Shown: positions 7,624 to 60,465 of the stretch, piece after piece
Position numbering within the stretch: position 1 is the stretch's first letter
How the letters are laid out: each line of letters starts with the position of its first letter
NCBI RefSeq assembly: GCF_050920415.1
Contig: NZ_CP169309.1
DNA from: Escherichia coli
Lineage (GTDB): Bacteria > Pseudomonadota > Gammaproteobacteria > Enterobacterales > Enterobacteriaceae
DNA length: 64,000 nt
Reading direction: 5' to 3' (one strand)
Notes under the pieces: generated by a model
What the model saw: only the letters and a program-made list of their open reading frames with translations
Databases searched by the model: none
Told to the model about the DNA's origin: nothing
Made by a program: the position numbers and the translations under genes

Positions 7624-7791
7624 ATGAGAGGACTTACATACAATCCCGGCATTCTTCCGGCAGAAATGATTATTCGCCAACGCGTAAAGCCAATGCCATC
7701 GAGAGAGGAATTGCTTAAAAGAAAGAGTTTCGGTTCTGTTAATGACAACAAATATCTGAATGCGATGTGGCGTAAAGGAGGCAAGCAGTGA
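7624..7791 (+). CDS. Hypothetical small prophage protein (55 aa)
   Basis: GAGGAA RBS before ATG 7624; the longer overlapping ORF from 7474 is in another frame relative to 7320-7613 and was not preferred. Confidence 0.35.
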
Positions 7792-8087
7792 GTGTATGTC
7801 TTATTGATAAACGTCGACGTGGGCAACAAATACCATCTGTTGAAATGCCGAATCACACATGGTTTTGCGTACTTGATATCGATGGTATGGATACGTTGGT
7901 TGACACTCGTCATTACTGCGATACCGCAACAGCTACTCCGGCGAAAGCAAAGAAAATGGCTGCTATGATAGAAAGCTGGACTCCACCTGATGGTTGGTGC
8001 AATGGGAATGATCGAGATTGGCACGAAAAAATGAAGGGCTATATCTGCGATTTTTTACGTAAATGCAACGGATTCAGGGTGATGTGA
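7788..8087 (+). CDS. Hypothetical prophage protein (99 aa, GTG start)
   Basis: AGGAGG RBS; start overlaps previous stop. Confidence 0.4.
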
Positions 8088-8088
8088 C

Positions 8089-8982
8089 ATGAGCGAGATT
8101 AACCATCAGGCACTGCGTGAGGCGGCGGAAAATGCAACTAAGGGGAGCTACATCGTAGGGCATACATCGGTCAATCAGCACGGTAATTTAACAGGAGTTT
8201 TTGTTTGTCAAAAATGGAAAGGAGAACCCGGAGGCGTGATTGCAGAATGTCATGTTAACTGCCTGGTTGAAACAGATGTTCAGGCTTATGCAAACGCTGA
8301 ATTTATTGCTGCCTTTAATCCAAATGTTGCGCTGGCGCTACTGGATGAACGGGAAAGAAACCAGCAATACATCAAACGCCGCGACCAGGAGAACGAGGAA
8401 ATTGCGCTAACGGTAGGGAAGCTGCGTGTTGAGCTGGAAGGCAAAGACAAGCTGATTGCAGAGCTTAGAAAACAATGCGCTGAATGGGAGCGAAAAGCAT
8501 TAAGCAACTTTGAAGAGTGTGCTGCGATGGCTGAACGTATCGAAGAGTTGCAGACAAAATCTGCACCAGATTCGTTTGGCATCATCGGTGAAAATATTCG
8601 AACACAGGATAATCGAATAACGTCAGACCCTATGTTTTGTGTGTATCAAAAGCGCGAAATCGTTGTTGATGCTGATTATGACTATGACCGGATTGTCTGG
8701 GTTGATGAAGATGGCAATGAAGCCAATAAACGCCAAAGTCGTCGTCTCGAACTACTTCACGAAAACTTTCGAGAGCCACCAGAAAAATGGCGGCGCGTTG
8801 CTGTGAAAGATATTGATGAATTCGTTACCTGCTGTTTCACCGAACAGGGTTGTAAAGACTACCTGGCAGTCAATGGTCACAATCTTCGCTTGCCATTTAT
8901 ATATGTAAAAAGCGGTTTCAGGAACGCTGAATATATCGGCATAAGAAACTGGCTTGCTGGCATTCGCATCAAAGGAGAGTGA
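8089..8982 (+). CDS. Ea22-like prophage protein (297 aa)
   Basis: N-terminus MSEINHQALREAAENATKG and central coiled-coil are typical of the ead/Ea22-like family as I recall it; lambda-like position. Confidence 0.5.
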   Translation: MSEINHQALREAAENATKGSYIVGHTSVNQHGNLTGVFVCQKWKGEPGGVIAECHVNCLVETDVQAYANAEFIAAFNPNVALALLDERERNQQYIKRRDQENEEIALTVGKLRVELEGKDKLIAELRKQCAEWERKALSNFEECAAMAERIEELQTKSAPDSFGIIGENIRTQDNRITSDPMFCVYQKREIVVDADYDYDRIVWVDEDGNEANKRQSRRLELLHENFREPPEKWRRVAVKDIDEFVTCCFTEQGCKDYLAVNGHNLRLPFIYVKSGFRNAEYIGIRNWLAGIRIKGE

Positions 8983-8983
8983 G

Positions 8984-9175
8984 ATGAATGGACAAATATC
9001 AATTGTTCGACCAGGAGCATGTGACGATCGCGAAATACGAATGATTATTCGTCTGGCGATGGGGAAAACAATAACAGCTCTCATTACTCCAGAAAATCTC
9101 GCATTAGCTTTAACCGGAAAGTCAGACCTGCCAGTGGAGCTAAAGCTGCGAAATGTTGAGATTAAGGTGAAATAG
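8984..9175 (+). CDS. Hypothetical small prophage protein (63 aa)
   Basis: AAGGAGAG RBS before ATG 8984. Confidence 0.35.
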   Translation: MNGQISIVRPGACDDREIRMIIRLAMGKTITALITPENLALALTGKSDLPVELKLRNVEIKVK

Positions 9176-9177
9176 CT

Positions 9178-10383
9178 ATGACCACTATTACCAAAGAACG
9201 TATCGAATTGTTCATTAAAAATCCGCTTGATAACGGACTTACTCGTGGCGAACAAATGGAACTGGCACGAATTGCACTGGCCTCGCTTGAGGCAGAGCCA
9301 GTTGGTGCATTCCACATTGCTGAACAGCAAGTTGACGGAACAAGTGACTATCTCAAGGATGGAGAATGGCCTATTGATAATGGGATTATTGAAGTCTACG
9401 CCGCTCCGCCAGTACCGGTAGTACCTGCTGCATTACCTGAGAACGACGATGAGGACGGGCATGACATTGATTATCTTGAGCCATCTGAAGTTTACGCGCT
9501 TGGGCGAACAGCTGGCTGGAACGCCTGCCGCGTCGCCATGCTTCAGTCCGGAAACTTTCTGGAAAACAAGAATTCGTCAACCAATAATTTTCGGGAAATC
9601 GCGGAAACGTCAACCAACTCTCCGGTAATTCCTGATGAGGTGTTGTCCGCAATCCGGGAGGTTGCCAGGATTCGCGCCGATTTCGATGATTTTGACGGTG
9701 ACAGGCGAGGTATCGGTGATTGTCTGGATGAGGCCGAGCAAGAGCTTATCGTTACCATTAACAAATATGCCAGTCAGTTGGCAGTAGAGCCGGTAGTGCC
9801 TGCTGTTCTGGAACGTTTGCGAACCATTGTAGCGGACCCACGCGCATTACCTCGCAGAAAAGAATGGGTTAGTGGGCAGCAGTACAGTTACGTACTTCTC
9901 GAAAACGTAGAAGCTATGGTTGATGAAGCCTGCCGTGCAGCCATGCTCTATGGTGCCGTACATGCAAGCCAGGCTTACAAGTTGCCACAAACGCAGTTTA
10001 AACAGGTTGCTGACCTCTACGAAATGCAATTTGATGACGGTCGCACTTGTACCTTTCACACTGATGCGCAAAAGGCTGTGCAATGGCTTCAGGCGTGCGA
10101 CGGAAACAGGGTTCAGGAATACGTTAAGCTGGAACGATTGCAGAACGCACTGTCTGGCAACTCTCCGGTAACTCCGGATGGTTGGATAAGCTGTAGTGAG
10201 CGAGTGCCAGAGGACGGTCAGCACGTAATTATTTTATGTGATGGCGCATTCGTTCTTTATGCGCAATATCGGGGCGGTGAGTTTTTTGATGTCGTCCGCA
10301 ATGGTGAGGAGTTCTTCGAAACGCAGAGCCGCAATGTAACCCACTGGATGCCGCTACCAGAACCGCCGCAGGAGGCGAAATGA
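9178..10383 (+). CDS. Hypothetical prophage protein with C-terminal DUF551-like motif (401 aa)
   Basis: C-terminal ...VTHWMPLPEPP resembles the DUF551 signature common in enterobacterial prophages. Confidence 0.45.
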   Translation: MTTITKERIELFIKNPLDNGLTRGEQMELARIALASLEAEPVGAFHIAEQQVDGTSDYLKDGEWPIDNGIIEVYAAPPVPVVPAALPENDDEDGHDIDYLEPSEVYALGRTAGWNACRVAMLQSGNFLENKNSSTNNFREIAETSTNSPVIPDEVLSAIREVARIRADFDDFDGDRRGIGDCLDEAEQELIVTINKYASQLAVEPVVPAVLERLRTIVADPRALPRRKEWVSGQQYSYVLLENVEAMVDEACRAAMLYGAVHASQAYKLPQTQFKQVADLYEMQFDDGRTCTFHTDAQKAVQWLQACDGNRVQEYVKLERLQNALSGNSPVTPDGWISCSERVPEDGQHVIILCDGAFVLYAQYRGGEFFDVVRNGEEFFETQSRNVTHWMPLPEPPQEAK

Positions 10384-10640
10384 TGAATGTAAAAGAGAAG
10401 GTTTTTCAGGTGATGCGTTCCCGGGCTGCCCTGCAAGATAAAGCTCTCGGCGGGGAATATCCATTCAGGATGGCAACCTGGAATCTGCGGTTGGCAATGG
10501 AGAAGGAATTTCCTGATGAAGAATGGCGTTCGGCAGATTTGCGCAAAATTCTTATGGAGATGGCTAAAGACGGAACAGTATCCAAAGATACCCATGCCAG
10601 CCGGATTGGTCAGGCGGTATGGAGACTGGAGGTGAGGTAA
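10380..10640 (+). CDS. Hypothetical prophage protein (86 aa)
   Basis: Start overlaps previous stop; stop overlaps next start. Confidence 0.4.
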   Translation: MMNVKEKVFQVMRSRAALQDKALGGEYPFRMATWNLRLAMEKEFPDEEWRSADLRKILMEMAKDGTVSKDTHASRIGQAVWRLEVR

Positions 10641-10924
10641 TGGCTAACCTGCAACTTGCCGTTAAATGTGAATACTTCGATGCCATGATTCGTGGAGAGA
10701 AAACGGAAGAGTATCGCTTGTGTAATGACTACTGGAATAAGCGAATTATGTTCCGCGAGTACGACCGCCTGATTATCACAAAGGGATATCCGAAGCGCGA
10801 CGACTCCAGTCGTAGAATTGACGTCCCGTATGACGGATATGAAATCAAGACAATCATACATCCACACTTCGGTGATAAACCGGTAAAGGTGTTCGCGATA
10901 AAGGTGAATATCGGCAATGAATAA
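10640..10924 (+). CDS. Hypothetical prophage protein (94 aa from ATG 10640)
   Basis: GGAGGTGAGG RBS before ATG 10640; TAATG coupling with the upstream gene. Confidence 0.4.
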   Translation: MANLQLAVKCEYFDAMIRGEKTEEYRLCNDYWNKRIMFREYDRLIITKGYPKRDDSSRRIDVPYDGYEIKTIIHPHFGDKPVKVFAIKVNIGNE

Positions 10925-10995
10925 CATCCTCGCACTCGCGGGGATTTCTTTTATCTGAACTCGCTACGGCGGGTTTTGTTTTATGGAGATGATAA

Positions 10996-11163
10996 ATGCA
11001 CTTCCGAGTCACAGGTGAATGGAATGGAGAGCCATTCAACAGAGTTATCGAAGCAGAGAACATCAACGACTGCTATGACCACTGGATGCTGTGGGCGCAG
11101 ATAGCACATGCAGACGTAACCAATATTCGAATTGAAGAACTGAAAGAACACCAAGCCGCCTGA
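10996..11163 (+). CDS. Small protein upstream of xis (55 aa)
   Basis: GGAG RBS; stop codon lies in the loop of terminator 11156-11176. Confidence 0.4.
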   Translation: MHFRVTGEWNGEPFNRVIEAENINDCYDHWMLWAQIAHADVTNIRIEELKEHQAA

Positions 11164-11176
11164 TGGCGGTTTTTTC
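11156..11176 (+). terminator. Intrinsic terminator upstream of xis
   Basis: CCGCC-TGAT-GGCGG hairpin followed by TTTTTTCTT. Confidence 0.6.
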
Positions 11177-11202
11177 TTGCGTGTAATTGCGGAGACTTTG
11201 CG

Positions 11203-11421
11203 ATGTACTTGACACTTCAGGAGTGGAACGCTCGCCAGCGACGCCCAAGAAGCCTTGAAACAGTTCGTCGATGGGTGCGCGAATGCAGGATATTCCCTCC
11301 TCCGGTTAAGGATGGAAGAGAATATCTGTTCCACGAATCAGCGGTAAAGGTTGACTTAAATCGACCAGTAACAGGTAGCCTTTTGAAGAGGATCAGAAAT
11401 GGGAAGAAGGCGAAGTCATGA
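11203..11421 (+). CDS. xis: Excisionase, lambda Xis type (72 aa)
   Basis: Near-identical to lambda Xis as I recall it (MYLTLQEWNARQRRPRSLETVRRW...); overlaps int start. Confidence 0.9.
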   Translation: MYLTLQEWNARQRRPRSLETVRRWVRECRIFPPPVKDGREYLFHESAVKVDLNRPVTGSLLKRIRNGKKAKS

Positions 11422-12469
11422 GCGCCGGGATTTACCCCCTAACCTTTATATAAGAAACAATGGATATTACTGCTACAGGGACCCAAGGACGGGTAAAGAG
11501 TTTGGATTAGGCAGAGACAGGCGAATCGCAATCACTGAAGCCATACAGGCCAACATTGAGTTATTTTCAGGACACAAACACAAGCCTCTGACAGCGAGAA
11601 TCAACAGTGATAATTCCGTTACGTTACATTCATGGCTTGATCGCTACGAAAAAATCCTGGCCAGCAGAGGAATCAAGCAGAAGACACTCATAAATTACAT
11701 GAGCAAAATTAAAGCAATAAGGAGGGGGCTGCCTGATGCTCCACTTGAAGACATCACCACAAAAGAAATTGCGGCAATGCTCAATGGATACATAGACGAG
11801 GGCAAGGCGGCGTCAGCCAAGTTAATCAGATCAACACTGAGCGATGCATTCCGAGAGGCAATAGCTGAAGGCCATATAACAACAAACCCTGTCGCTGCCA
11901 CTCGCGCAGCAAAATCAGAGGTAAGGAGATCAAGACTTACGGCTGACGAATACCTGAAAATTTATCAAGCAGCAGAATCATCACCATGTTGGCTCAGACT
12001 TGCAATGGAACTGGCTGTTGTTACCGGGCAACGAGTTGGTGATTTATGCGAAATGAAGTGGTCTGATATCGTAGATGGATATCTTTATGTCGAGCAAAGC
12101 AAAACAGGCGTAAAAATTGCCATCCCAACAACATTGCATGTTGATGCTCTCGGGATATCAATGAAGGAAACACTTGATAAATGCAAAGAGATTCTTGGCG
12201 GAGAAACCATAATTGCATCTACTCGTCGTGAACCGCTTTCATCCGGCACAGTATCAAGGTATTTTATGCGCGCACGAAAAGCATCAGGTCTTTCCTTCGA
12301 AGGGGATCCGCCTACCTTTCACGAGTTGCGCAGTTTGTCTGCAAGACTCTATGAGAAGCAGATAAGCGATAAGTTTGCTCAACATCTTCTCGGGCATAAG
12401 TCGGACACCATGGCATCACAGTATCGTGATGACAGAGGCAGGGAGTGGGACAAAATTGAAATCAAATAA
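11399..12469 (+). CDS. int: Tyrosine integrase, lambda Int type (356 aa)
   Basis: Matches lambda Int (MGRRRSHERRDLPPNLYIRNNGYYCYRDPRTGKEF...; catalytic HELRS...LLGH...Y region). Confidence 0.95.
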   Translation: MGRRRSHERRDLPPNLYIRNNGYYCYRDPRTGKEFGLGRDRRIAITEAIQANIELFSGHKHKPLTARINSDNSVTLHSWLDRYEKILASRGIKQKTLINYMSKIKAIRRGLPDAPLEDITTKEIAAMLNGYIDEGKAASAKLIRSTLSDAFREAIAEGHITTNPVAATRAAKSEVRRSRLTADEYLKIYQAAESSPCWLRLAMELAVVTGQRVGDLCEMKWSDIVDGYLYVEQSKTGVKIAIPTTLHVDALGISMKETLDKCKEILGGETIIASTRREPLSSGTVSRYFMRARKASGLSFEGDPPTFHELRSLSARLYEKQISDKFAQHLLGHKSDTMASQYRDDRGREWDKIEIK

Positions 12470-12558
12470 TGATTTTATTTTGACTGATAGTGACCTGTTC
12501 GTTGCAACAAATTGATAAGCAATGCTTTTTTATAATGCCAACTTAGTATAAAAAAGCA
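12470..12558. other. attL (B-O-P'): lambda 15-bp core at 12544-12558 with P-prime arm 12470-12543; prophage/chromosome junction
   Basis: Minus strand reads GCTTTTTTATACTAAGTTGGCATTATAAAAAAGCATTGCTTATCAATTTGTTGCAACGAACAGGTCACTATCAGTCAAAATAAA, the lambda attP core and P-prime arm. Confidence 0.85.
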
Positions 12559-12603
12559 GGCTTCAACGGATTCATTTTTCTATTTCATAGCCCGGAGCAA
12601 CCT

Positions 12604-13887
12604 GTGAATACATTTTCAGTTTCCCGTCTGGCGCTGGCATTGGCTTTTGGCGTGACGCTGACCGCCTGTAGCTCAACACCACCCGATCAACGTCCTTCTG
12701 ATCAAACCGCGCCTGGTACCTCTTCTCGCCCGATTCTGTCGGCAAAAGAAGCGCAGAATTTCGATGCTCAACACTATTTTGCGTCCCTGACGCCGGGCGC
12801 AGCATCATGGAATCCATCACCGATTACTCTGCCTGCACAACCTGACTTTGTTGTCGGCCCGGCGGGTACTCCGGGTGTAACGCATACCACGATTCAGGCG
12901 GCGGTAGATGCGGCAATTATCAAGCGCACCAACAAGCGCCAGTATATTGCCGTGATGCCTGGTGAATATCAGGGAACGGTGTATGTCCCTGCCGCTCCGG
13001 GTGGAATTACTCTGTACGGTACAGGTGAAAAACCGATTGATGTGAAGATTGGGCTTTCCCTTGATGGGGGCATGAGCCCTGCCGACTGGCGTCACGACGT
13101 CAACCCGCGCGGCAAATATATGCCAGGTAAACCAGCGTGGTATATGTACGATAGCTGCCAGAGCAAACGCAGCGACAGTATCGGCGTTCTCTGCTCTGCG
13201 GTCTTCTGGTCACAAAACAATGGCCTGCAACTGCAAAACCTGACCATCGAAAACACGCTGGGTGATAGCGTAGATGCGGGTAACCATCCGGCGGTGGCAC
13301 TGCGTACTGATGGCGACAAAGTGCAGATCAATAACGTCAACATTCTCGGTCGTCAGAATACATTCTTTGTCACCAACAGTGGTGTGCAAAACCGTCTGGA
13401 AACCAACCGTCAGCCGCGTACTCTGGTGACCAACAGTTACATTGAAGGGGATGTGGATATCGTTTCTGGTCGCGGCGCAGTGGTGTTCGATAATACCGAA
13501 TTCCGCGTGGTGAACTCACGTACTCAGCAAGAAGCGTATGTGTTTGCACCGGCTACGCTGTCTAACATCTATTACGGTTTCCTCGCCGTAAACAGCCGTT
13601 TCAATGCTTCCGGTGATGGCGTGGCGCAACTGGGCCGCTCGCTGGATGTTGATGCCAATACCAACGGTCAGGTGGTGATCCGTGATAGCGCCATCAACGA
13701 AGGTTTTAACACGGCTAAACCGTGGGCCGATGCGGTGATTTCCAATCGTCCGTTTGCGGGTAATACTGGCAACGTTGATGATAACGACGAAGTACAGCGT
13801 AATCTGAATGACACTAACTACAACCGCATGTGGGAATACAATAACCGCGGCGTGGGTAGCAAAGTGGTTGCAGAGGCGAAGAAGTAA
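12604..13887 (+). CDS. ybhC: Pectinesterase-family outer-membrane lipoprotein YbhC (427 aa, GTG start)
   Basis: Signal peptide with lipobox LTACSS; matches the E. coli YbhC sequence and its position beside the lambda att site. Confidence 0.9.
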   Translation: MNTFSVSRLALALAFGVTLTACSSTPPDQRPSDQTAPGTSSRPILSAKEAQNFDAQHYFASLTPGAASWNPSPITLPAQPDFVVGPAGTPGVTHTTIQAAVDAAIIKRTNKRQYIAVMPGEYQGTVYVPAAPGGITLYGTGEKPIDVKIGLSLDGGMSPADWRHDVNPRGKYMPGKPAWYMYDSCQSKRSDSIGVLCSAVFWSQNNGLQLQNLTIENTLGDSVDAGNHPAVALRTDGDKVQINNVNILGRQNTFFVTNSGVQNRLETNRQPRTLVTNSYIEGDVDIVSGRGAVVFDNTEFRVVNSRTQQEAYVFAPATLSNIYYGFLAVNSRFNASGDGVAQLGRSLDVDANTNGQVVIRDSAINEGFNTAKPWADAVISNRPFAGNTGNVDDNDEVQRNLNDTNYNRMWEYNNRGVGSKVVAEAKK

Positions 13888-13903
13888 AAGCGATTAACTT
13901 TTT

Positions 13904-14010
<107 letters not shown>

Positions 14011-27642: not shown

Positions 27643-27724
27643 TGTAAACGATTCCACTAATTTATTCCATGTCACACTTTTCGCATCTTTGTTATGCTAT
27701 GGTTATTTCATACCATAAGCCTAA
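27643..27724 (+). promoter_or_regulatory. gal operon control region: GalR operator OE (27643-27658), CRP site (TGTCACACTTTTCGCATC), P1/P2 -10 region (TATGCTATGGTTATTTCATACCAT)
   Basis: Classic gal promoter sequence read directly. Confidence 0.85.
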
Positions 27725-27735
27725 TGGAGCGAATT

Positions 27736-28752
27736 ATGAGAGTTCTGGTTACCGGTGGTAGCGGTTACATTGGAAGTCATACCTGTGTGCAATTACTGCA
27801 AAACGGTCATGATGTCATCATTCTTGATAACCTCTGTAACAGTAAGCGCAGCGTACTGCCTGTTATCGAGCGTTTAGGCGGCAAACATCCAACGTTTGTT
27901 GAAGGTGATATCCGTAACGAAGCGTTGATGACCGAGATCCTGCACGATCACGCTATCGACACCGTGATCCACTTCGCCGGGCTGAAAGCCGTTGGCGAAT
28001 CGGTACAAAAACCGCTGGAATATTACGACAACAATGTCAACGGCACCCTGCGCCTGATTAGCGCCATGCGCGCCGCTAACGTCAAAAACTTTATCTTCAG
28101 CTCCTCCGCCACCGTTTATGGCGATCAGCCCAAAATTCCATACGTTGAAAGCTTCCCGACCGGCACGCCACAAAGTCCTTACGGCAAAAGCAAGCTGATG
28201 GTGGAACAGATCCTCACCGATCTGCAAAAAGCCCAGCCGGACTGGAGCATTGCCCTGCTGCGCTACTTCAACCCAGTTGGCGCGCATCCGTCGGGCGATA
28301 TGGGCGAAGATCCGCAAGGTATTCCGAATAACCTGATGCCATACATCGCCCAGGTTGCCGTAGGCCGTCGCGACTCGCTGGCTATTTTTGGTAACGATTA
28401 TCCGACCGAAGACGGTACTGGCGTACGCGATTACATCCACGTAATGGACCTGGCAGACGGCCACGTCGTGGCAATGGAAAAACTGGCGAACAAGCCAGGC
28501 GTACACATCTACAACCTCGGCGCAGGCGTAGGCAGCAGCGTGCTGGATGTGGTTAATGCCTTCAGTAAAGCTTGCGGCAAACCGGTTAATTATCATTTTG
28601 CACCGCGTCGCGAGGGCGACCTTCCGGCCTACTGGGCTGACGCCAGCAAAGCCGACCGTGAACTGAACTGGCGCGTAACGCGCACACTCGATGAAATGGC
28701 ACAGGACACCTGGCACTGGCAGTCACGCCATCCACAGGGATATCCCGATTAA
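27736..28752 (+). CDS. galE: UDP-glucose 4-epimerase (338 aa)
   Basis: MRVLVTGGSGYIGSH... Rossmann NAD motif. Confidence 0.95.
   Translation: MRVLVTGGSGYIGSHTCVQLLQNGHDVIILDNLCNSKRSVLPVIERLGGKHPTFVEGDIRNEALMTEILHDHAIDTVIHFAGLKAVGESVQKPLEYYDNNVNGTLRLISAMRAANVKNFIFSSSATVYGDQPKIPYVESFPTGTPQSPYGKSKLMVEQILTDLQKAQPDWSIALLRYFNPVGAHPSGDMGEDPQGIPNNLMPYIAQVAVGRRDSLAIFGNDYPTEDGTGVRDYIHVMDLADGHVVAMEKLANKPGVHIYNLGAGVGSSVLDVVNAFSKACGKPVNYHFAPRREGDLPAYWADASKADRELNWRVTRTLDEMAQDTWHWQSRHPQGYPD
27765..27780 (+). promoter_or_regulatory. GalR internal operator OI within the galE 5-prime end
   Basis: GTGGTAGCGGTTACAT. Confidence 0.8.
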
Positions 28753-28761
28753 GGAACGACC

Positions 28762-29808
28762 ATGACGCAATTTAATCCCGTTGATCATCCACATCGCCGC
28801 TACAACCCGCTCACCGGGCAATGGATTCTGGTTTCACCGCACCGCGCCAAGCGCCCCTGGCAGGGGGCGCAGGAAACGCCAGCCAAACAGGTGTTACCTG
28901 CGCACGATCCAGATTGCTTCCTCTGCGCAGGTAATGTGCGGGTGACAGGCGATAAAAACCCCGATTACACCGGGACTTACGTTTTCACTAATGACTTTGC
29001 GGCCTTGATGTCTGACACGCCAGATGCGCCAGAAAGCAACGATCCTTTGATGCGTTGTCAGAGCGCGCGCGGTACCAGCCGGGTGATCTGCTTTTCACCG
29101 GATCACAGTAAAACGCTGCCAGAACTGGGCGTTGCGGCATTGACGGAAATCGTCAAAACCTGGCAGGAGCAAACCGCAGAACTGGGGAAAACATACCCGT
29201 GGGTGCAGGTCTTTGAAAACAAAGGCGCGGCGATGGGCTGCTCTAACCCGCATCCGCACGGACAGATTTGGGCAAATAGCTTCCTGCCTAACGAAGCTGA
29301 GCGCGAAGACCGCCTGCAAAAAGAATATTTCGCCGGGCAGAAATCACCAATGCTGGTGGATTATGTTCAGCGCGAGCTGGCAGACGGTAGCCGTACCGTT
29401 GTCGAAACCGAACACTGGTTAGCCGTTGTGCCTTACTGGGCTGCCTGGCCGTTCGAAACGCTACTGCTGCCCAAAGCCCACGTTTTGCGAATCACCGATT
29501 TGACCGACGCCCAACGCAGCGATTTGGCGCTGGCGTTGAAAAAGCTGACCAGTCGTTATGACAACCTCTTCCAGTGCTCCTTCCCCTACTCTATGGGCTG
29601 GCACGGCGCACCGTTTAATGGCGAAGAGAATAAACACTGGCAGCTGCACGCGCACTTTTATCCGCCTCTGCTGCGCTCCGCCACCGTACGTAAATTTATG
29701 GTTGGTTATGAAATGCTGGCAGAGACCCAGCGAGACCTGACCGCAGAACAGGCAGCAGAGCGTTTACGCGCAGTCAGCGATATCCATTTTCGCGAATCCG
29801 GAGTGTAA
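28762..29808 (+). CDS. galT: Galactose-1-phosphate uridylyltransferase (348 aa)
   Basis: Matches GalT; HPH active-site motif (CSNPHPHGQ). Confidence 0.95.
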
Positions 29809-29811
29809 GTA

Positions 29812-30960
29812 ATGAGTCTGAAAGAAAAAACACAATCTCTGTTTGCCAATGCATTTGGCTACCCTGCCACTCATACCATTCAGGCGCCTGGCCGCGTGAA
29901 TCTTATTGGCGAACACACCGACTACAACGACGGTTTCGTTCTGCCCTGCGCAATTGATTATCAAACCGTCATTAGTTGTGCGCCACGTGATGACCGTAAC
30001 GTTCGCGTGATGGCAGCCGATTATGAAAATCAGCTCGACGAGTTTTCCCTCGATGCGCCCATTGTCGCGCATGAAAACTATCAATGGGCTAACTACGTTC
30101 GTGGCGTGGTGAAACATCTGCAACTGCGTAACAACAGCTTCGGCGGCGTGGACATGGTGATCAGCGGCAATGTGCCGCAGGGGGCCGGGTTAAGTTCTTC
30201 CGCTTCACTGGAAGTCGCGGTCGGAACCGTATTGCAGCAGCTTTATCATCTGCCGCTGGACGGCGCACAAATCGCACTTAACGGCCAGGAAGCAGAAAAC
30301 CAGTTTGTTGGCTGTAACTGTGGGATCATGGATCAGCTGATTTCCGCGCTCGGCAAAAAAGATCATGCCTTGCTGATCGATTGCCGCTCACTGGGCACCA
30401 AAGCGGTTTCCATGCCGAAAGGTGTGGCTGTCGTCATCATCAACAGTAACTTCAAACGTACCCTGGTTGGCAGCGAATACAACACCCGTCGTGAACAGTG
30501 CGAAACCGGTGCGCGTTTCTTCCAGCAGCCAGCCCTGCGCGATGTCACCATTGAAGAGTTCAACGCTGTTGCGCATGAACTGGACCCGATCGTGGCGAAA
30601 CGCGTGCGTCATATCCTGACTGAAAACGCCCGTACCGTTGAAGCAGCCAGCGCACTGGAGCAAGGCGACCTGAAACGTATGGGCGAGTTGATGGCGGAGT
30701 CTCATGCTTCTATGCGAGATGATTTCGAAATCACCGTGCCGCAAATTGACACTCTGGTAGAAATCGTCAAAGCTGTGATTGGCGACAAAGGTGGCGTACG
30801 CATGACCGGCGGCGGATTTGGCGGCTGTATCGTCGCACTGATCCCGGAAGAGCTGGTGCCTGCCGTACAGCAAGCTGTCGCTGAACAATATGAAGCAAAA
30901 ACAGGTATTAAAGAGACTTTTTACGTTTGTAAACCATCACAAGGAGCAGGACAGTGCTGA
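29812..30960 (+). CDS. galK: Galactokinase (382 aa)
   Basis: GHMP kinase motifs ([14 protein letters not shown]). Confidence 0.95.
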
Positions 30961-31994
30961 ACGAAACTCCCGCACTGGCACCCGATGGTCAGCCGTACCG
31001 ACTGTTAACTTTGCGTAACAACGCAGGGATGGTAGTCACGCTGATGGACTGGGGTGCGACTTTACTTTCCGCCCGTATTCCGCTTTCCGATGGCAGCGTC
31101 CGCGAGGCGCTGCTTGGCTGCGCCAGCCCGGAATGCTATCAGGATCAGGCCGCATTTCTTGGGGCCTCTATTGGTCGTTATGCAAACCGTATCGCCAATA
31201 GTCGTTATACCTTTGACGATGAAACCGTAACGCTTTCGCCAAGTCAGGGCGTCAACCAGCTGCACGGCGGCCCGGAAGGGTTCGACAAACATCGCTGGCA
31301 GATTGTGAACCAGAACGATCGTCAGGTGCTGTTTGCCTTGAGTTCAGATGATGGCGATCAGGGCTTTCCGGGGAATCTCGGCGCGACAGTGCAGTATCGT
31401 CTGACCGACGATAACCGTATCTCTATTACTTATCGCGCCACGGTTGATAAACCTTGCCCGGTGAATATGACTAACCACGTCTATTTCAACCTCGACGGCG
31501 AGCAGTCTGACGTACGCAATCACAAGCTGCAGATTCTGGCAGACGAATATCTGCCGGTTGATGAAGGCGGCATTCCGCACGACGGCCTGAAATCTGTCGC
31601 CGGAACGTCTTTTGATTTCCGCAGCGCCAAAATCATCGCCAGTGAATTTCTTGCCGACGATGATCAGCGCAAAGTGAAAGGTTACGATCATGCGTTCTTG
31701 TTACAGGCTAAAGGTGATGGCAAGAAAGTGGCGGCGCATGTCTGGTCAGCAGATGAAAAATTGCAACTGAAGGTCTACACCACCGCTCCGGCTCTGCAAT
31801 TTTACTCCGGCAACTTCCTTGGTGGCACGCCGTCACGGGGAACTGAACCTTACGCTGACTGGCAGGGACTGGCTCTGGAAAGCGAGTTTCTGCCGGACAG
31901 CCCAAACCACCCTGAATGGCCGCAACCGGACTGCTTCCTGCGTCCTGGCGAAGAGTATTCCAGCCTGACTGAATATCAGTTTATTGCTGAATAA
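30954..31994 (+). CDS. galM: Aldose 1-epimerase / galactose mutarotase (346 aa)
   Basis: Matches GalM; overlaps the galK end. Confidence 0.95.
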
Positions 31995-37974: not shown

Positions 37975-38104
37975 TACATTGGTGGGTCGTGCAGGATGAC
38001 TCACTTCGCTCGCCCTTCGGGCCGTCGCCGCGAGCGGCTCCGTTGTTTCGCTGCGCTCAACTCGAACCTGCTGCAGGTTCGAATCTTTGAATATCCCAGA
38101 TAGC

Positions 38105-38132
38105 AAAAAAGCGCCTTTAGGGCGCTTTTTTT
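38105..38132 (-). terminator. Intrinsic (bidirectional) terminator after lysQ
   Basis: GCGCC-TTTAG-GGCGC hairpin flanked by A- and T-runs immediately 3-prime of the last tRNA. Confidence 0.8.
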
Positions 38133-38136
38133 ACAT

Positions 38137-38212
38137 TGGTGGGTCGTGCAGGATTCGAACCTGCGACCAATTGATTAAAAGTCAACTGCTCTACCAACTG
38201 AGCTAACGACCC
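38137..38212 (-). tRNA. lysQ: tRNA-Lys (UUU)
   Basis: Reverse complement matches E. coli tRNA-Lys incl. anticodon loop CUUUUAA and CCA end. Confidence 0.95.
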
Positions 38213-38344
38213 CTTGCGGGATTATGCTGCTTTAATCATTCAGGATGGTGGGTCGTGCAGGATGACTCGACTTCGTCTCGCCCTTCGGGCCGTTGCTGAC
38301 GCAACGTTATCCTTCACATTCTCTACCAGTAACCACCTTTAAAT

Positions 38345-38420
38345 TGGTGGGTCGTGCAGGATTCGAACCTGCGACCAATTGATTAAAAGTCAACTGCTCT
38401 ACCAACTGAGCTAACGACCC
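38345..38420 (-). tRNA. lysZ: tRNA-Lys (UUU)
   Basis: Identical to the other tRNA-Lys copies. Confidence 0.95.
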
Positions 38421-38566
38421 ATACGGGTGTTACCTGAATGATTTCTACTCGGGACCAATCTTTAATATTGGTGGATCGTGCAGGATGACTCGCTTCGCTC
38501 GCCCTACGGGCCGTTGCTGGCGCAACGTTATCCTTCACGCTTAACATCTGAGTTTGATGTTAAAAC

Positions 38567-38642
38567 TGGTGGGTCGTGCAGGATTCGAACCTGCGACCAA
38601 TTGATTAAAAGTCAACTGCTCTACCAACTGAGCTAACGACCC
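38567..38642 (-). tRNA. lysY: tRNA-Lys (UUU)
   Basis: Identical to the other tRNA-Lys copies. Confidence 0.95.
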
Positions 38643-38645
38643 GAG

Positions 38646-38721
38646 TGGTGGGTGATGACGGGATCGAACCGCCGACCCCCTCCTTGTAAGGGAGGTGCTC
38701 TCCCAGCTGAGCTAATCACCC
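38646..38721 (-). tRNA. valZ: tRNA-Val (UAC)
   Basis: Reverse complement matches E. coli tRNA-Val (anticodon loop CUUACAA). Confidence 0.95.
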
Positions 38722-38771
38722 GATACTGCGCTGGATACTACAAACTACTTCCACCGAACCCACCGCATTAG

Positions 38772-38847
38772 TGGTGGGTCGTGCAGGATTCGAACCTGCG
38801 ACCAATTGATTAAAAGTCAACTGCTCTACCAACTGAGCTAACGACCC
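38772..38847 (-). tRNA. lysW: tRNA-Lys (UUU)
   Basis: Identical to the other tRNA-Lys copies. Confidence 0.95.
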
Positions 38848-38849
38848 GG

Positions 38850-38925
38850 TGGTGGGTGATGACGGGATCGAACCGCCGACCCCCTCCTTGTAAGGGAGGT
38901 GCTCTCCCAGCTGAGCTAATCACCC
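38850..38925 (-). tRNA. valT: tRNA-Val (UAC)
   Basis: Identical to the other tRNA-Val copy. Confidence 0.95.
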
Positions 38926-39060
38926 GATACTACGCTGGATACTACAACTAACTAGGTTAGTGGTGGGTCGTGCAGGATGACTCGACTTCGTCTCGCCCTT
39001 CGGGCCGTTGCTGACGCAACGTTATCCTTCACGTTTTACTACCGCTTCCACCTTAGCGAT

Positions 39061-39136
39061 TGGTGGGTCGTGCAGGATTCGAACCTGCGACCAATTGATT
39101 AAAAGTCAACTGCTCTACCAACTGAGCTAACGACCC
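39061..39136 (-). tRNA. lysT: tRNA-Lys (UUU)
   Basis: Identical to the other tRNA-Lys copies; first gene of the operon. Confidence 0.95.
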
Positions 39137-39300: not shown

Positions 39301-40092
39301 TTACATCGCGTTCAGACGTTTTTGCGCCTGTTTTGCGCCATCAGTACCAGGGTATTTACTGATAACCTGCTGGTATACGGCTTTCGCTTTTGCGGTGTCA
39401 CCTTTCTCCTGCATGATGACGCCGACTTTAAACATCGCATCTGCAGCCTTCGGTGACTTCGGATAGTTTTTCACTACCGAAGCAAAATAATACGCCGCAT
39501 CATCTTTTTTACCCTTGTTGTAGTTTAACTGACCCAGCCAATAATTGGCGTTTGGCAGGTAAGTTGAATCAGGGTAATTTTTGATGAAATTCTGAAATGC
39601 CACCATTGCGTCATCCTGGCGGGATTTATCCTGCACCAGCGCAATAGCTGCATTGTAATCCGTGTTTGCATCACCGCTTTTCACCGGCGCGCCAGCATTC
39701 GCAGTACCAGCATCAGCTGTCGGCGTCGTTGATGCCGCCGCACCGCTTTGATCGCCGCTGGTTGATTGCGCCGCTGCACCACCGCTGCTGAGGCTATCGA
39801 TCTGCAACAGGATCTGCTTTTGCCGCTCCACGACCTGATTCAGTTGATACTGATTTTCCTGAATCTGACCACGCAGGGAATCAATATCGGATTGATTATC
39901 AGAGAGTTGTTGCTGGAGTTGGGTTAAAAGCTGGCTGTGAGCATTAGAAATACGCTCAAGTTGAGTGACGCGGTCTTCGACCGAGCCTGAGCCGACACTA
40001 CTGATTGGTGCCTGAGCAAAAGCGGCCCAGGGGGCCGCTATACCAACCAGTAACGACAGACTCAATAGTTGATGTCTGAAGTTACTGCTCAT
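39301..40092 (-). CDS. cpoB: Cell division coordinator CpoB/YbgF (263 aa)
   Basis: Signal peptide, coiled-coil and TPR region; last gene of the tol-pal cluster. Confidence 0.9.
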   Translation of the reverse strand: MSSNFRHQLLSLSLLVGIAAPWAAFAQAPISSVGSGSVEDRVTQLERISNAHSQLLTQLQQQLSDNQSDIDSLRGQIQENQYQLNQVVERQKQILLQIDSLSSGGAAAQSTSGDQSGAAASTTPTADAGTANAGAPVKSGDANTDYNAAIALVQDKSRQDDAMVAFQNFIKNYPDSTYLPNANYWLGQLNYNKGKKDDAAYYFASVVKNYPKSPKAADAMFKVGVIMQEKGDTAKAKAVYQQVISKYPGTDGAKQAQKRLNAM

Positions 40093-40101
40093 GCAATTCT
40101 C

Positions 40102-40647
<546 letters not shown>

Positions 40648-49035: not shown

Positions 49036-49980
49036 ATGGGTCTTGATAATATAGGTTCTGTTGTCAATCGCTTCTCTGGTTGGCCATCAAATGATCCTCT
49101 AAAAACAGATAACGAATCAATGACATCACCCGTGACTGTGCAGGTAATAAAGTTGATTGCCGCCATCCTTGACCCACATCGGATAGTCGTTGGTATCGAT
49201 ACACTCTATACAACGCAGCGCAAAACATTTACCTCAGAGGGTCAACAACTCATTGAATCAGCATTGAAAACACTTAATGTGATGAATTTAAATAACCTGG
49301 AAACAGATCGCGATGAGGAGGGTAACTATCTGGCTTTTGGATATAACGTTGACACTCCTGACAGAATAACCGTTTCTGCTTATAATGAAAAAAAACCTTT
49401 CTGTTATGGCCAATGTCTTTTAATACAGGATGAAGAACCAGATTTATTTAACCTGGTAAAAATTAAAACCTTTGAAGCCAGGCATAATTATGTTTCTAAA
49501 TTGATGAGCGATCCGGAATTTATGTTTAAATTCAGTTATAGCGCCCAACAAAATAGATTAGAACCTCATCTTCTGGTTCCCACTTATTTCCCTCTGAAAA
49601 CAAACCAACCGGTTACGCTAGAGGATTTACTGATACTTTATCGTTTCTTTAAAATGAATGGCGATTTTAATATATTAACATCAGATGAATACATGAGTAT
49701 CATGACACCTCTGATGAAGTGTGAGCGTAGTGTCCACGACCATAACAGGTATGTGACGGGCAAAGATGCTCTTCTTCTGGACAATCCTCCGTCTGGTAAC
49801 CAGATATATTTCCATATTTCCCCTGACGAATCAGCAACACTTGTCCTTTATTTTTCAGACAATAACCTTGAATCCTTCGTCTTTGAAAATGATATTCCGA
49901 GCCAGTATCGACATTTCAAAATGTTTACCAATTTAGCACTAGTTATTGATCAGTTAACCGACGCCAATCAAATACTTTAA
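49036..49980 (+). CDS. Hypothetical protein, AT-rich (314 aa)
   Basis: Long ORF with AT-rich codon usage unlike the flanking backbone; no family recognised. Confidence 0.5.
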   Translation: MGLDNIGSVVNRFSGWPSNDPLKTDNESMTSPVTVQVIKLIAAILDPHRIVVGIDTLYTTQRKTFTSEGQQLIESALKTLNVMNLNNLETDRDEEGNYLAFGYNVDTPDRITVSAYNEKKPFCYGQCLLIQDEEPDLFNLVKIKTFEARHNYVSKLMSDPEFMFKFSYSAQQNRLEPHLLVPTYFPLKTNQPVTLEDLLILYRFFKMNGDFNILTSDEYMSIMTPLMKCERSVHDHNRYVTGKDALLLDNPPSGNQIYFHISPDESATLVLYFSDNNLESFVFENDIPSQYRHFKMFTNLALVIDQLTDANQIL

Positions 49981-50059
49981 TTTTCTATACAGCCCTGTGT
50001 AAAATATTGCTAAACAGTGCCCGGGGTTGATTTTTATTCCTCACGGTGATATTTAAATC

Positions 50060-50482
50060 ATGACACCATCTCAGCTCTCTTTTAATACTCTTCCTGTCAA
50101 TGCAACATGCACTTCAGAGATAACAGTAAACACACAAAAATTCTCTGACATCCTCTACTCAGTGGGGTATTCCCTAAAGGATCTGGCTTATCTGAGCAGA
50201 TGTCTGGCATCATTACACCCAACACTCGCCAAAAACATTTATGAAACGGAAAATCTCAGCGATCAAAAATTACTTTATATAGATTGCCGTAGTACAAATG
50301 AAATCAAGATAAATATATTTTTGGGTCAAAAAAGAGAAGAATTAATCGAAATTAGTTCTGATACAGTCATTTTTTCGATACTGTCTTCATTGATTGACTC
50401 AGCTATTTCTGAACATCGACATCAAATCACCGTTAATGATTCAAATAATTCTGAACTATTTTATGAGGATTATACTGATTAA
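50060..50482 (+). CDS. Hypothetical acidic protein, AT-rich (140 aa)
   Basis: ORF co-oriented with and 80 nt downstream of 49036-49980. Confidence 0.45.
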   Translation: MTPSQLSFNTLPVNATCTSEITVNTQKFSDILYSVGYSLKDLAYLSRCLASLHPTLAKNIYETENLSDQKLLYIDCRSTNEIKINIFLGQKREELIEISSDTVIFSILSSLIDSAISEHRHQITVNDSNNSELFYEDYTD

Positions 50483-51024
50483 ATCCACTCTGTGCGAACC
50501 TGTCCTGCATTTATGCCAGAAGTATTAGAATCTTTGCTTAACGTTACTCATACAGTAGCACCTTCATGTGTCTCTCTTTTTTACGAACAATCAAAAGAAC
50601 TAACAAGGGGCATAATTCGTATAAATTATTAACCATTTGTTATATTCAACATTTTTTTACATTAAGCAGAGATGAATTGCAGTGAAATTCAAGTTAAATT
50701 TTACGAAATGTATTACTCATGGCTAAAAAATCTTCCCAAAATGCAAATTAGAAGTTGATCACAATTATCTCAATCCATCAAATCAAGATAATTTTAAAAA
50801 TTTAACATCAATGACAGCGGTTGGCATAACACACTGAATTAAAATGAAAATTTAAAAAACAATTTTTAAACAATCATTTCCCGAAAGACATTTTGAAAAT
50901 AGATCAATTGCAACATTACGGTCAGATAAAGACACTCCTCTGATATTAAACCTGTGCCGTTATGAACGGCCATAAATACGACGTGTGTAACTTAATTTAC
51001 TCTCTGTCTTACAAAGGATTACCC

Positions 51025-51474
51025 ATGAAGAAAGCAACACTTGTGATTGGCGTTATTGGCGCGGACTGCCATGCAGTAGGCAATAAAGTTCTGGACCGCG
51101 TTTTTAGCAACCATGACTTCAGAGTCATTAATCTGGGCGTAATGGTCAGCCAGGACGAATATATTGATGCTGCCATTGAAACTGGCGCTGACGCGATTGT
51201 CGTCTCCTCTATCTATGGGCATGGCGATATCGACTGTCTGGGCATGCGCGAACGCTGCATTGAGCGTGGCTTGGGGGACATCCTGCTCTATGTGGGCGGC
51301 AACCTGGTGGTCGGAAAACATGACTTCGCTGACGTGGAAACCAAGTTCAAAGAGATGGGATTTGATCGCGTCTTCGCCCCAAGTCATGACTTAGAAGATG
51401 TCTGCCAGCTGATGGCCCACGATATCAACCAACGTCATGGCGTTGAAACTTGCATTCTTGAAGAGGCAATCTGA
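51025..51474 (+). CDS. glmS: Glutamate mutase sigma subunit, B12-binding (methylaspartate mutase S; 149 aa from MKKATL)
   Basis: Close match to clostridial MutS/GlmS ([18 protein letters not shown]..., GDIDC...); symbol is not the glucosamine-6-P synthase. Confidence 0.85.
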
Positions 51475-52862
51475 TGCAAATCGTCTCTGTCGATATTGGA
51501 TCGACGTGGACCAAAGCAGCCCTCTTCACCCGGGAGGGGGACGCGTTAACGTTGGTTAACCACGTTCTGACCCCAACCACCATCCATCATCTGGCAGAGG
51601 GATTTTTCTCCAGCCTTAACCAGGTGTTAAACGTAGATAATGCCCTCCCCCTGTTAAACCGCGGTGAGGTTGCATTGAAGTATTCCTCTTCTGCCAAAGG
51701 TGGGCTGGCGGTTGCCGCAATGGGAATAGTGCCTTCTATCACTCTGGAAACCGCGAAAGTAACCGCTCACTCTGCAGGTGCTAAAATTGCGCAATATTAC
51801 TCCTACAAGCTGAACCGCCGTGATATCCAGGCACTAGAAGAAACGCAGCCCGATATTCTCTTGTTCACCGGCGGCACCGACGGCGGAGAAGAAAGCTACG
51901 GACTGAATAACGCCCGTGTGCTGGCAGAATCCAAACTCGACTGCGCCATTATTTATGCCGGAAACCGGGATATTCAGGACAAGGTGCAGGAGACCCTCGG
52001 GCATAAAGACCTGACCATCGTCGACAACGTTCTGCCCGATCTTGACCATCCGAACCCTTTAGCTGCACGCCAGGCTATCTGCGACATATTCCTTAAACGC
52101 ATCGTTAAAGGGAAAGGGCTGGATGTCATTGTTGATAAAACAGGCGAAGAACCAATGCCGACACCATGGACGGTCTTTGAACTGGTGAAGGCAATCAGTA
52201 ACGTCGATCACAGCTGGAAAGAGTTCATGCTGATCGACATGGGCGGCGCAACCACCGATGTCTATTCCGCCTGTGCCAACACGCTCTCGCCCGACACTGT
52301 TTTACATGGCGTACCGGAACCCTTCGTAAAACGGACGGTGGAAGGCGATCTGGGAATGCGCGTCTCGGCAATGGTGGTTGGTGAAAGTGCGAAAGAGTTA
52401 GTCAGTGTGAATTTTGCTCAGCAACCCGCACAGTTGGACGCTTTTTATCATTACCTCCGTCATCTAGTCGCTCATCCCGACTACTTACCCGCGAATGCAG
52501 ATGAAAAATATTTCGATACCGTCCTGGCCGGACTGTGTGTGGGTTATGCCACCGAAAGACATGCGGGCACCAAAAAAGAGGTCTGCACCTGCGTCGGCAA
52601 TGTCGATTTACAGATGGGACGTGACCTGACAACCGTGCGTAAAGTCGTGGGTTCCGGCGGATGGCTCTCGCGTGCCAGTCAGTTCGATATGCATCACTGG
52701 TTGAAATACCGCGAGTTAAACGACGACGGTAAACGCATTCTCTTACCGACCGAATTTGAATATTACCGCGATTCCCGGGGGCTATTACCACTGCTGGCAA
52801 ACGTCGCCAGAGTCGATCCGCTGGCCGCCGCGCGCACCAGTATTCAATGCTTAACCCTATAA
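51474..52862 (+). CDS. glmL: Glutamate mutase-associated MutL/GlmL-like protein (462 aa)
   Basis: Conserved position between the S and E subunits; start overlaps the glmS stop. Confidence 0.65.
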   Translation: MQIVSVDIGSTWTKAALFTREGDALTLVNHVLTPTTIHHLAEGFFSSLNQVLNVDNALPLLNRGEVALKYSSSAKGGLAVAAMGIVPSITLETAKVTAHSAGAKIAQYYSYKLNRRDIQALEETQPDILLFTGGTDGGEESYGLNNARVLAESKLDCAIIYAGNRDIQDKVQETLGHKDLTIVDNVLPDLDHPNPLAARQAICDIFLKRIVKGKGLDVIVDKTGEEPMPTPWTVFELVKAISNVDHSWKEFMLIDMGGATTDVYSACANTLSPDTVLHGVPEPFVKRTVEGDLGMRVSAMVVGESAKELVSVNFAQQPAQLDAFYHYLRHLVAHPDYLPANADEKYFDTVLAGLCVGYATERHAGTKKEVCTCVGNVDLQMGRDLTTVRKVVGSGGWLSRASQFDMHHWLKYRELNDDGKRILLPTEFEYYRDSRGLLPLLANVARVDPLAAARTSIQCLTL

Positions 52863-52880
52863 CAATTAAGGCTGCAATCA

Positions 52881-54326
52881 ATGGAACTTCGAAATAAGAA
52901 ATTAACCCATGACGAATTCATGACCGAGCGGCAACAGGTATTGAAAACCTGGGAAACCGGCAAGGATGTTGAAAACTTTGAAGATGGCGTTAAATACCAA
53001 CAAACCATTCCTGAGCATAAACGCTTCTCTCTTGCCCTGCTGAAAGCAGACAAGGAAGGTAAAACCCTTAGCCAACCGCGCGCAGGCGTGGCGCTGATGG
53101 ACGAACACATCGAACTACTGAAAACACTACAAGAAGAGTGCGATCTGCTGCCGAGCACTATCGATGCATATACCCGTCTGAATCGGTACGAAGAAGCGGC
53201 TGTAGGGATTAAAAAATCCATCGAAGCCGGAACCTCTAAACTGAACGGTTTACCGGTAGTTAACCACGGCGTCGCAGCTTGCCGTCGCCTCACCGAAACT
53301 CTGCAAAAACCGCTACAGATCCGCCACGGCACGCCTGATGCGCGTCTGCTGGCTGAAATCTCGATGGCCAGCGGCTTTACCAGTTATGAAGGCGGCGGCA
53401 TTTCCTACAATATTCCGTATGCCAAGCGCGTAACGCTGGAAAAATCGATCCGCGACTGGCAGTACTGCGATCGTTTAATGGGGATGTATGAAGAACACGG
53501 GATCCGCATCAACCGCGAACCGTTTGGCCCACTAACGGGTACGCTAATCCCGCCGTTTATCTCGCACTCTATCGCAATAATCGAAGGCTTGCTGGCACTG
53601 GAACAGGGTGTGAAGTCTATCACCGTTGGTTATGGTCAGGTCGGTAGCCTGACGCAGGATGTTGCGGCGATCCAGTCTCTGCGGGAACTTGCACACGAAT
53701 ATTTTCAGAGCTATGGCTATACCGACTACGAATTAAGTACCGTGTTTCACCAGTGGATGGGAGGCTTTCCGGAGGACGAATCGAAAGCGTTCGCCATTAT
53801 CTCCTGGGGTGCTGCCGTCGCGGGGATGTCTGGTGCTACCAAAGTCATCACCAAAAGTCCGCACGAAGCCTGGGGCATCCCGACTGCTGCTGCCAACATT
53901 CAGGGGCTAAAAGCCTCCCGCCAGATGCTCAACATGGTCAACGAGCAGAAATTCCCGCCGTGCCCGGCGGTTGAACTAGAAATTGAACTGATTAAGAGCG
54001 AGGTTCGCGCTGTACTGAACAAAGTGTTCGAACTGGGCAATGGTGATATTGCGCGCGGTACGGTGCTGGCATTTGAAGCGGGCGTACTGGATGTGCCGTT
54101 TGCGCCAGCCGCCTGCAACGCAGGCAAAATTCTTCCGGTCCGTGACAACACCGGCGCGATACGCGTACTGGAAGCCGGAGCCGTTCCATTGCCAAAAGAT
54201 ATTCTCGACCTCCACCACGATTACGTTGCTGAACGCGCGCGCTTTGAAGGACGCCAACCGACATTCCAGATGGTTGTAGATGACATCAATGCTGTATCCC
54301 ACAGTAAATTAATAGGAAGACCATAA
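52881..54326 (+). CDS. glmE: Glutamate mutase epsilon (catalytic) subunit (481 aa)
   Basis: Size and sequence fit MutE/GlmE. Confidence 0.8.
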   Translation: MELRNKKLTHDEFMTERQQVLKTWETGKDVENFEDGVKYQQTIPEHKRFSLALLKADKEGKTLSQPRAGVALMDEHIELLKTLQEECDLLPSTIDAYTRLNRYEEAAVGIKKSIEAGTSKLNGLPVVNHGVAACRRLTETLQKPLQIRHGTPDARLLAEISMASGFTSYEGGGISYNIPYAKRVTLEKSIRDWQYCDRLMGMYEEHGIRINREPFGPLTGTLIPPFISHSIAIIEGLLALEQGVKSITVGYGQVGSLTQDVAAIQSLRELAHEYFQSYGYTDYELSTVFHQWMGGFPEDESKAFAIISWGAAVAGMSGATKVITKSPHEAWGIPTAAANIQGLKASRQMLNMVNEQKFPPCPAVELEIELIKSEVRAVLNKVFELGNGDIARGTVLAFEAGVLDVPFAPAACNAGKILPVRDNTGAIRVLEAGAVPLPKDILDLHHDYVAERARFEGRQPTFQMVVDDINAVSHSKLIGRP

Positions 54327-55567: not shown

Positions 55568-55570
55568 CAA

Positions 55571-56941: not shown

Positions 56942-57255
56942 AACAGTCAATTGTCTCACTGGCGCAAGTCATTCGTTCGAAAAATGCCGGACCTTACGAA
57001 CTGGTTTTAGATATTTTATTTAAAACGAAAGAAAACTATGAGCGAGTAAAATCATCAGGGCAATTAACCCCAGAACTGATTGCGCGCTTATATCATGTTG
57101 AACCTGACTTTATTCATCGTATTGTCTGGTTTGATCCTTCTAACGCAGTAAAAATTGTCATGCCACGAGATATTATCTCCGGGAATGTAGGTGACAATGA
57201 TGTCTATGGCGCACAGCAACATGCACCTTTATTAAATATGAGTTTCGATTTGTAA
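56938..57255 (+). CDS. Small partner protein, DUF4387-like (105 aa), translationally coupled to the preceding gene
   Basis: ATGA stop/start overlap with 55571-56941. Confidence 0.45.
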   Translation: MKQSIVSLAQVIRSKNAGPYELVLDILFKTKENYERVKSSGQLTPELIARLYHVEPDFIHRIVWFDPSNAVKIVMPRDIISGNVGDNDVYGAQQHAPLLNMSFDL

Positions 57256-57415
57256 AAATCCGAACACTTTTAGCCAACTGACATCCCGTCACTTATTGCA
57301 GCTCAACACTTCAGCTATTTGTAAGGTTGTTATAGCAGGTAGATGCCTGAATCTCTATTCAGGCATCCACTTCTCCTGATTCTGATTTATCGCCGTGCAC
57401 CTGATGGAGGAAAAA

Positions 57416-58696: not shown

Positions 58697-58803
58697 GGGG
58701 GATCTTAAGCAATCAGAAGCCAATGACTACGCATTTTTATAAGCCGGATCATGAAGTTAGACGGCAATTAAGTAACACTAACGTTTAAGGTGAAAAGTGA
58801 AAT

Positions 58804-60456: not shown

Positions 60457-60465
60457 GGAAAATGA

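Follow-up and report, generated by a model that had tools for sequence, protein, structure and literature searches.

The window analysed here, 64,000 nucleotides of Escherichia coli contig NZ_CP169309.1 (assembly GCF_050920415.1), opens inside a prophage and crosses into the chromosome upstream of ybhC. The prophage part ends with a lambda-derived cassette in which xis and int are followed by an attachment site, and ybhC lies directly downstream of int on the same strand. The features around the junction are as follows.

1-12557, no strand assigned: prophage part of the window, from the immunity region to attL (PHROGs and Pfam hits)
10921-12557, plus: lambda-derived cassette with a 55-aa ORF, xis, int, the P' arm and the core (blastn against lambda)
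10996-11163, plus: 55-aa ORF within the cassette
11203-11421, plus: xis, excisionase, 72 aa (Pfam Exc, E-value 3.9e-41)
11399-12469, plus: int, tyrosine integrase, 356 aa (Pfam Arm-DNA-bind_1 and Phage_integrase)
12466-12542, minus: P' arm of attL, with the site sequences of lambda 27739-27815
12466-12476, minus: arm-type Int site P'3, matching the lambda string and overlapping the int stop codon
12477-12486, minus: arm-type Int site P'2, matching the lambda string
12487-12497, minus: arm-type Int site P'1, matching the lambda string
12505-12517, minus: IHF H' core, matching the lambda string
12543-12557, minus: common core O, 15 bp, GCTTTTTTATACTAA (exact match)
12546-12552, minus: 7-bp overlap TTTATAC for strand exchange, inside the core
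12558-12603, minus: B arm of attB and remaining ybhB-ybhC intergenic DNA, the first chromosomal sequence
12604-13887, plus: ybhC, 427 aa, GTG start (ORF; Pfam Pectinesterase; annotated ybhC in strain MFDS1022581 and in K-12)

The names and positions of P'1, P'2, P'3 and H' are taken over from the established lambda att literature.

The attL junction and its recombination genes

A search of the whole window returns the 15-bp lambda core as a single exact copy on the minus strand, at 12543-12557. The sequence-only reading had placed it on the correct strand, but its coordinates, 12544-12558, need to be moved one base to the left. No second copy is present in the window even with up to two mismatches (chance expectation from shuffles, 0.16 matches), and by simple arithmetic 64 kb should contain an exact 15-mer about 1e-4 times by chance. 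As the window starts inside the prophage, near cro, the lack of a second core does not count against an att site. The same 15-mer is common to lambda attP, K-12 attB, the empty-site strain MFDS1022581 and the attR of sister genomes described below.

On the phage side, window 12463-12557, comprising core and P' arm, aligns with lambda 27724-27818 with zero mismatches, 12463-12542 corresponding to lambda 27739-27818. The P' arm that had been proposed to follow the int stop (TAA, 12467-12469) is thus confirmed, at 100% identity to lambda between that stop and the core. On the chromosomal side, the B half is identical to the attB of both K-12 and MFDS1022581 across the 45 bases compared. In a three-way alignment of the reverse complement of 12440-12640 with lambda attP and K-12 attB, the ybhC side follows attB and the int side follows attP. 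When the whole lambda genome is compared by blastn, homology extends through the final core base (window 12557, lambda 27724) and no further, while homology to MFDS1022581 begins at 12539. The two matches overlap only in the core and in a TTG common to B' and P', so zero bases have been lost or gained, and such a loss-free meeting of two homologies reads as the signature of conservative site-specific recombination.

The window contains the following components of a lambda-type attL: the common core, a P' arm with P'1 to P'3 and H', a B half-site with the breakpoint inside the core, a cognate tyrosine integrase carrying an arm-binding domain and the R-K-H-R-H-Y set, and an excisionase. Judged by its sequence, 12466-12565 is a genuine attL (B-O-P'), with the core at 12543-12557 as the exact prophage boundary.

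A perfect 12-nt inverted repeat, TGCTTTTTTATA / TATAAAAAAGCA, occupies 12523-12534 and 12547-12558, between the P' arm and the core and overlapping the latter. Lambda attP itself already supplies ten of the 12 positions; the final two base pairs, contributed by the B arm (A at 12557-12558, pairing with TG at 12523-12524), bring the repeat to 12 in attL.

The cassette matches lambda 29361-27724 at 98.7% over 1638 bp (blastn) and is the sole long lambda-homologous stretch in the window, with 20 nucleotide mismatches, zero of them after 12229. Xis shares 71 of 72 residues with lambda Xis (98.6%), the sole change being G59S, and Int shares 353 of 356 (99.2%), the changes being H164P, A245T and I248V, which agrees with the earlier description of both proteins as lambda-type. 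All six catalytic residues of Int are retained (R212, K235, H308, R311, H333 and Y342).

The prophage body and its partner junction

Upstream of the cassette, the window carries the following prophage genes, assigned by PHROGs and Pfam except for the insertion sequence.

64-309, minus: Cro-like gene
370-1107: CI-like repressor
1879-2184: N-like antiterminator
2891-4200, minus: IS3-family insertion sequence, 1310 bp (terminal inverted repeats; transposase ORFs)
3820-4146 and 2933-3820: IS3-family transposase ORFs within 2891-4200
3749-3865: ALIL frameshift pseudoknot within the IS3-family element
5636-6343: Erf/Rad52
6344-6817: SSB
6827-7306: endonuclease
7320-7613: Abc2
8089-8982: Ea22-like gene
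9178-10383: DUF551 gene

The closest phages for this arm are the P22-like N7, Sf6, IME10 and CUS-3, in mosaic patches of about 97%, and among complete RefSeq E. coli genomes the best match covers no more than 61% of its length. Outside 10921-12557, blastn matches to lambda are confined to four short patches, including 2673-2806, 5164-5211 and 8327-8439. Identity between the CI-like repressor and lambda cI is 23%. For the Cro-like protein, lambda Cro gave no match, and the best E-value to any lambda protein is 0.66. In the N-like protein, the C-terminal 36 residues are 58% identical to lambda N while the N-terminal part is unrelated, so that this antiterminator is itself mosaic; the unrelated part is where lambda N carries its RNA-binding motif. 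The proposal that the immunity and N region is not of lambda type stands, with the correction that the N-like protein is not unrelated to lambda N over its whole length. Erf and SSB take the place of lambda Exo, Bet and Gam. Thus, the genome-wide similarity to lambda, including immunity and recombination genes, that would define a Lambdavirus lambda prophage was not found. The mosaic nature proposed for the element is upheld, with lambda homology at 10921-12557 and a P22/Sf6-like arm over the remaining 1-10920, and the element seems best regarded as a P22-like (Lederbergvirus) prophage equipped with a lambda xis-int-att cassette, not as a lambda variant. P22-type early genes are present in the window itself, and the virion module (tailspike, ejection proteins) was observed in sister genomes only.

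The IS3-family element interrupts the prophage pL operon upstream of xis-int and is separate from att. It is flanked by a 3-bp target duplication, ATC (2888-2890 and 4201-4203), and is 99.9% identical to copies annotated "IS3 family transposase". The uninterrupted target site is seen in L016. The sister assemblies are free of an IS at 2891-4200 and carry copies elsewhere, in the Ea22-like gene, and an IS66 element in the immunity region.

Relatives with an identical arm were found by exact-protein look-up, and their bio-side junction through look-up of a clone-specific BioA allele. Exact look-up of the Cro-like protein returned short contigs only. The 90-aa protein next to O is very common, with 15747 blocks by exact-protein look-up, and its search returned unrelated prophages. 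GCA_000194575.2 matches the prophage arm of the window at 100% except at IS positions. Read from ybhB, its bio-side junction consists of B', the 15-bp core seen in attL and a P arm, which makes it an attR (P-O-B'). Such an attR lies beside ybhB in four related occupied genomes, this one included, and from these sister assemblies we infer an equivalent attR in the genome of the window. Beyond the sister attR come an O-acetyltransferase gene, a P22-type tailspike gene, mnt and ejection-protein genes, 96-99% identical to those of phages Gally, vB_EcoP-611R6 and Sf6, the tailspike and acetylase genes being 99% identical to vB_EcoP-611R6. Summed over two contigs, the prophage of GCA_000194575.2 comes to about 39.8 kb, the size of a complete P22-like phage. 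A further relative, JAQMUX010000001.1, retains only about 23 kb of prophage, its structural genes having been lost through IS-associated deletions; it also carries insertions of IS3 and IS66, and its gp16 and O genes are truncated.

The P arm of the sister attR retains the arm-type sites P1 and P2 as well as the sib/tI hairpin. Over 200 positions (L032:11931-12130) it shows 33 differences from lambda, most of them falling in the region of the lambda Xis, Fis and IHF-H2 sites, and it contains a palindrome, TAGTCT-ATTTTTT-AGACTA. The same variant P arm is found in the attP of phage JEP4 (MT740315.1, Lederbergvirus; L038:8028-8227), a site that follows closely on the tailspike gene and a small ORF. 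JEP4 shares the P22-like organisation and the lambda int, its int-attL stretch being 98.8% identical at the nucleotide level with one mismatch in the 77 bases of the P' arm, whereas differences in the immunity region, the early genes and the tailspike follow the mosaicism usual among such phages. An att cassette circulates that combines an invariant lambda P' arm, near-wild-type Int and Xis, and a rewritten P arm. As JEP4 was isolated with this int and this variant attP, the mosaic circulates as a free phage.

When compared with the attL of a K-12 lambda lysogen, the junction has the same 15-bp core, the whole P' arm (P'1-P'3 and H'), the same B half-site, the same position upstream of ybhC and nearly identical Int and Xis. 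It differs from a lambda lysogen in its prophage body, which is lambda-like only at 10921-12557, and in the altered P arm of its partner site in the sister genomes. The ybhC-ybhB site is also listed for lambda-B of E. coli B and lambda-Cr of strain Crooks (PMC3032704) and for Sp3 of O157:H7 Sakai (PMC8190617). These three, which were compared at the junction only, share the chromosomal site and have different prophage bodies; the int-attL-ybhC stretch matches E. coli B genomes at 97.4%.

The chromosomal flank and occupancy of the site

The GTG-initiated ORF at 12604 coincides with the annotated ybhC of MFDS1022581, in agreement with the gene start given in the sequence-only reading. Past ybhC come ybhJ, ybhI, ybhH, ybhD, pgl, ybhA, modCBA, acrZ, modEF and galETKM (27736-31994), in the order found in MFDS1022581. 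The presence of the mod genes and galETKM in the window, together with a far junction in the sister genomes that abuts ybhB-bioA, supports the assignment to the classical lambda attB between gal and bio. In MFDS1022581 (NZ_CP169399.1, L005), ybhB and ybhC are adjacent and attB is empty. Window 12539-61001 is collinear with this genome, with 3 mismatches in 48463 positions (megablast); one of these is the B'/P' base beside the core, leaving 2 real SNPs in 48.4 kb (12558-61001).

Integration replaces all DNA more than 46 bp upstream of ybhC. A scan of the interval between the int stop and the ybhC start (12470-12603) found no terminator-like site, and the sole promoter-like match in a scan from int to ybhC is weak and lies inside int. 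As int and ybhC are on the same strand with no terminator-like site between them, prophage transcription could run into ybhC, and read-through or otherwise changed ybhC expression is a possible consequence of the integration, although we consider read-through quite unlikely.

Several other features of the flank were recorded. Palindromic repeats of the REP/BIME type occupy the ybhC-ybhJ intergenic region (13895-14005), and searches spanning this region consequently match about 25 places per E. coli genome. At 37980-39136, seven tRNA genes (five tRNA-Lys UUU and two tRNA-Val UAC) are interleaved with four RtT repeats, and a CpoB/ybgF RNA thermometer lies at 40063-40201. Between cydAB and the window end stands an accessory block (49036-61068), which we take to be absent from K-12. 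According to the MFDS1022581 annotation, its genes encode methylaspartate mutase (glmS, glmL, subunit E), methylaspartate ammonia-lyase, an AtuA-family protein, a dicarboxylate symporter, a class I fumarate hydratase and cobO, and the block resembles a glutamate-fermentation (mesaconate pathway) island.

Of 5426 complete E. coli genomes, 1918 (about a third) carry the junction over its full 134 bp and the rest match the attB half only, and a 4-kb int-attL-ybhC stretch is covered to at least 80% in 1744 genomes. Within the clone of the window, the 11.9-kb bio-side flank shows 0 SNPs among the empty genomes (MFDS1022581 and L030) and the occupied ones (L032 and L034), which indicates that the prophage has been gained or lost recently within one clone.

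Origin and activity of the prophage end

The reading to which we give a probability of about 95% is that this attL arose by Int-mediated integration of a P22-like mosaic phage, equipped with a lambda xis-int-att cassette, at the attB between ybhB and ybhC. The attP core of the temperate phage would have paired with the attB core in the ybhB-ybhC intergenic region, and recombination by Int with IHF would have exchanged strands across the 7-bp overlap, giving attL and attR. The predicted products are int-P'-O-B-ybhC, as in the window, and ybhB-B'-O-P-phage, outside it. The integrating phage would not have been lambda but a Lederbergvirus mosaic whose lambda-type DNA spans only about 1.8 kb, from the sib/tI hairpin to just past xis. 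For excision, Int, Xis, IHF and Fis would assemble on attL and attR, and exchange within TTTATAC would restore an empty attB as in the near-identical strains. Sequence identities, breakpoints, intact int and xis, the sister attR and occupancy that varies within one clone are observed directly, whereas catalysis of the integration by Int, like a persisting ability of the site to recombine, is what we infer from them.

The alternatives bear on different aspects of this reading. That the core might be a chance match, or a piece of a larger repeat unrelated to att, could draw on the 12-nt inverted repeat overlapping it, but most of that repeat belongs to lambda attP itself, an exact 15-mer is expected far less than once in the window (and 0.16 times even with two mismatches allowed), and the 80 bases adjacent to the core are those of lambda, with no other copy in the window. 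A larger non-att repeat was rejected as a candidate because ten of the 12 repeat positions belong to lambda attP and the other two base pairs to the B arm, and this explanation as a whole is vanishingly unlikely. Highly improbable too, if less so, is that attL is the relic of an older lambda-type prophage, most of which was replaced in place by a P22-like phage through homologous recombination with only int, xis and attL surviving. The confinement of lambda homology to the cassette and a few short patches is compatible with such a history, since lambdoid and P22-like phages exchange modules through patches of this kind. However, the same combination already exists in the free phage JEP4, where the variant attP and lambda int come after a P22-type tailspike gene, and the P arm of the sister attR joins directly to the tailspike and acetylase genes close to those of vB_EcoP-611R6. 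Given JEP4 and the structure of the sister attR, ordinary integration of an already mosaic phage suffices, and the existence of this mosaic as a free phage makes a special in-place history unnecessary. The junction is an attL either way.

A more serious possibility, though still less probable than its contrary, is that the site is the dead attL of a cryptic remnant, intact in sequence but unable to excise owing to damage at its distal end or in its regulation. This concerns the activity of the site and is compatible with its identity as attL. The IS in the pL operon speaks for it, as does the decay of the prophage in JAQMUX010000001.1, and on both grounds the copy in the window may fail to induce or to excise. 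Conversely, no disabling change is seen in int, xis, the P' arm or the core, the prophage of GCA_000194575.2 has the length of a complete P22-like phage, and attB is empty in clone mates whose flanks are identical. Together with these empty sites, the intact state of int, xis and attL argues for a system that is functional or was so recently, even if induction or excision of the particular copy in the window may be impaired.

For integration of a mosaic phage at attB, the junction itself is ordinary, textbook and already known; it matters little beyond annotation and opens no new question about site-specific recombination. It is a long shot that the variant P arm integrates and excises efficiently and thereby provides a natural experiment on the tolerance of the excisive intasome; if it were true that this arm stays efficient, it would show how much sequence change that intasome tolerates. 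MFDS1022581 offers a ready-made unintegrated control, and the variable occupancy of the site in one E. coli clone is useful for strain typing and for studies of prophage dynamics.
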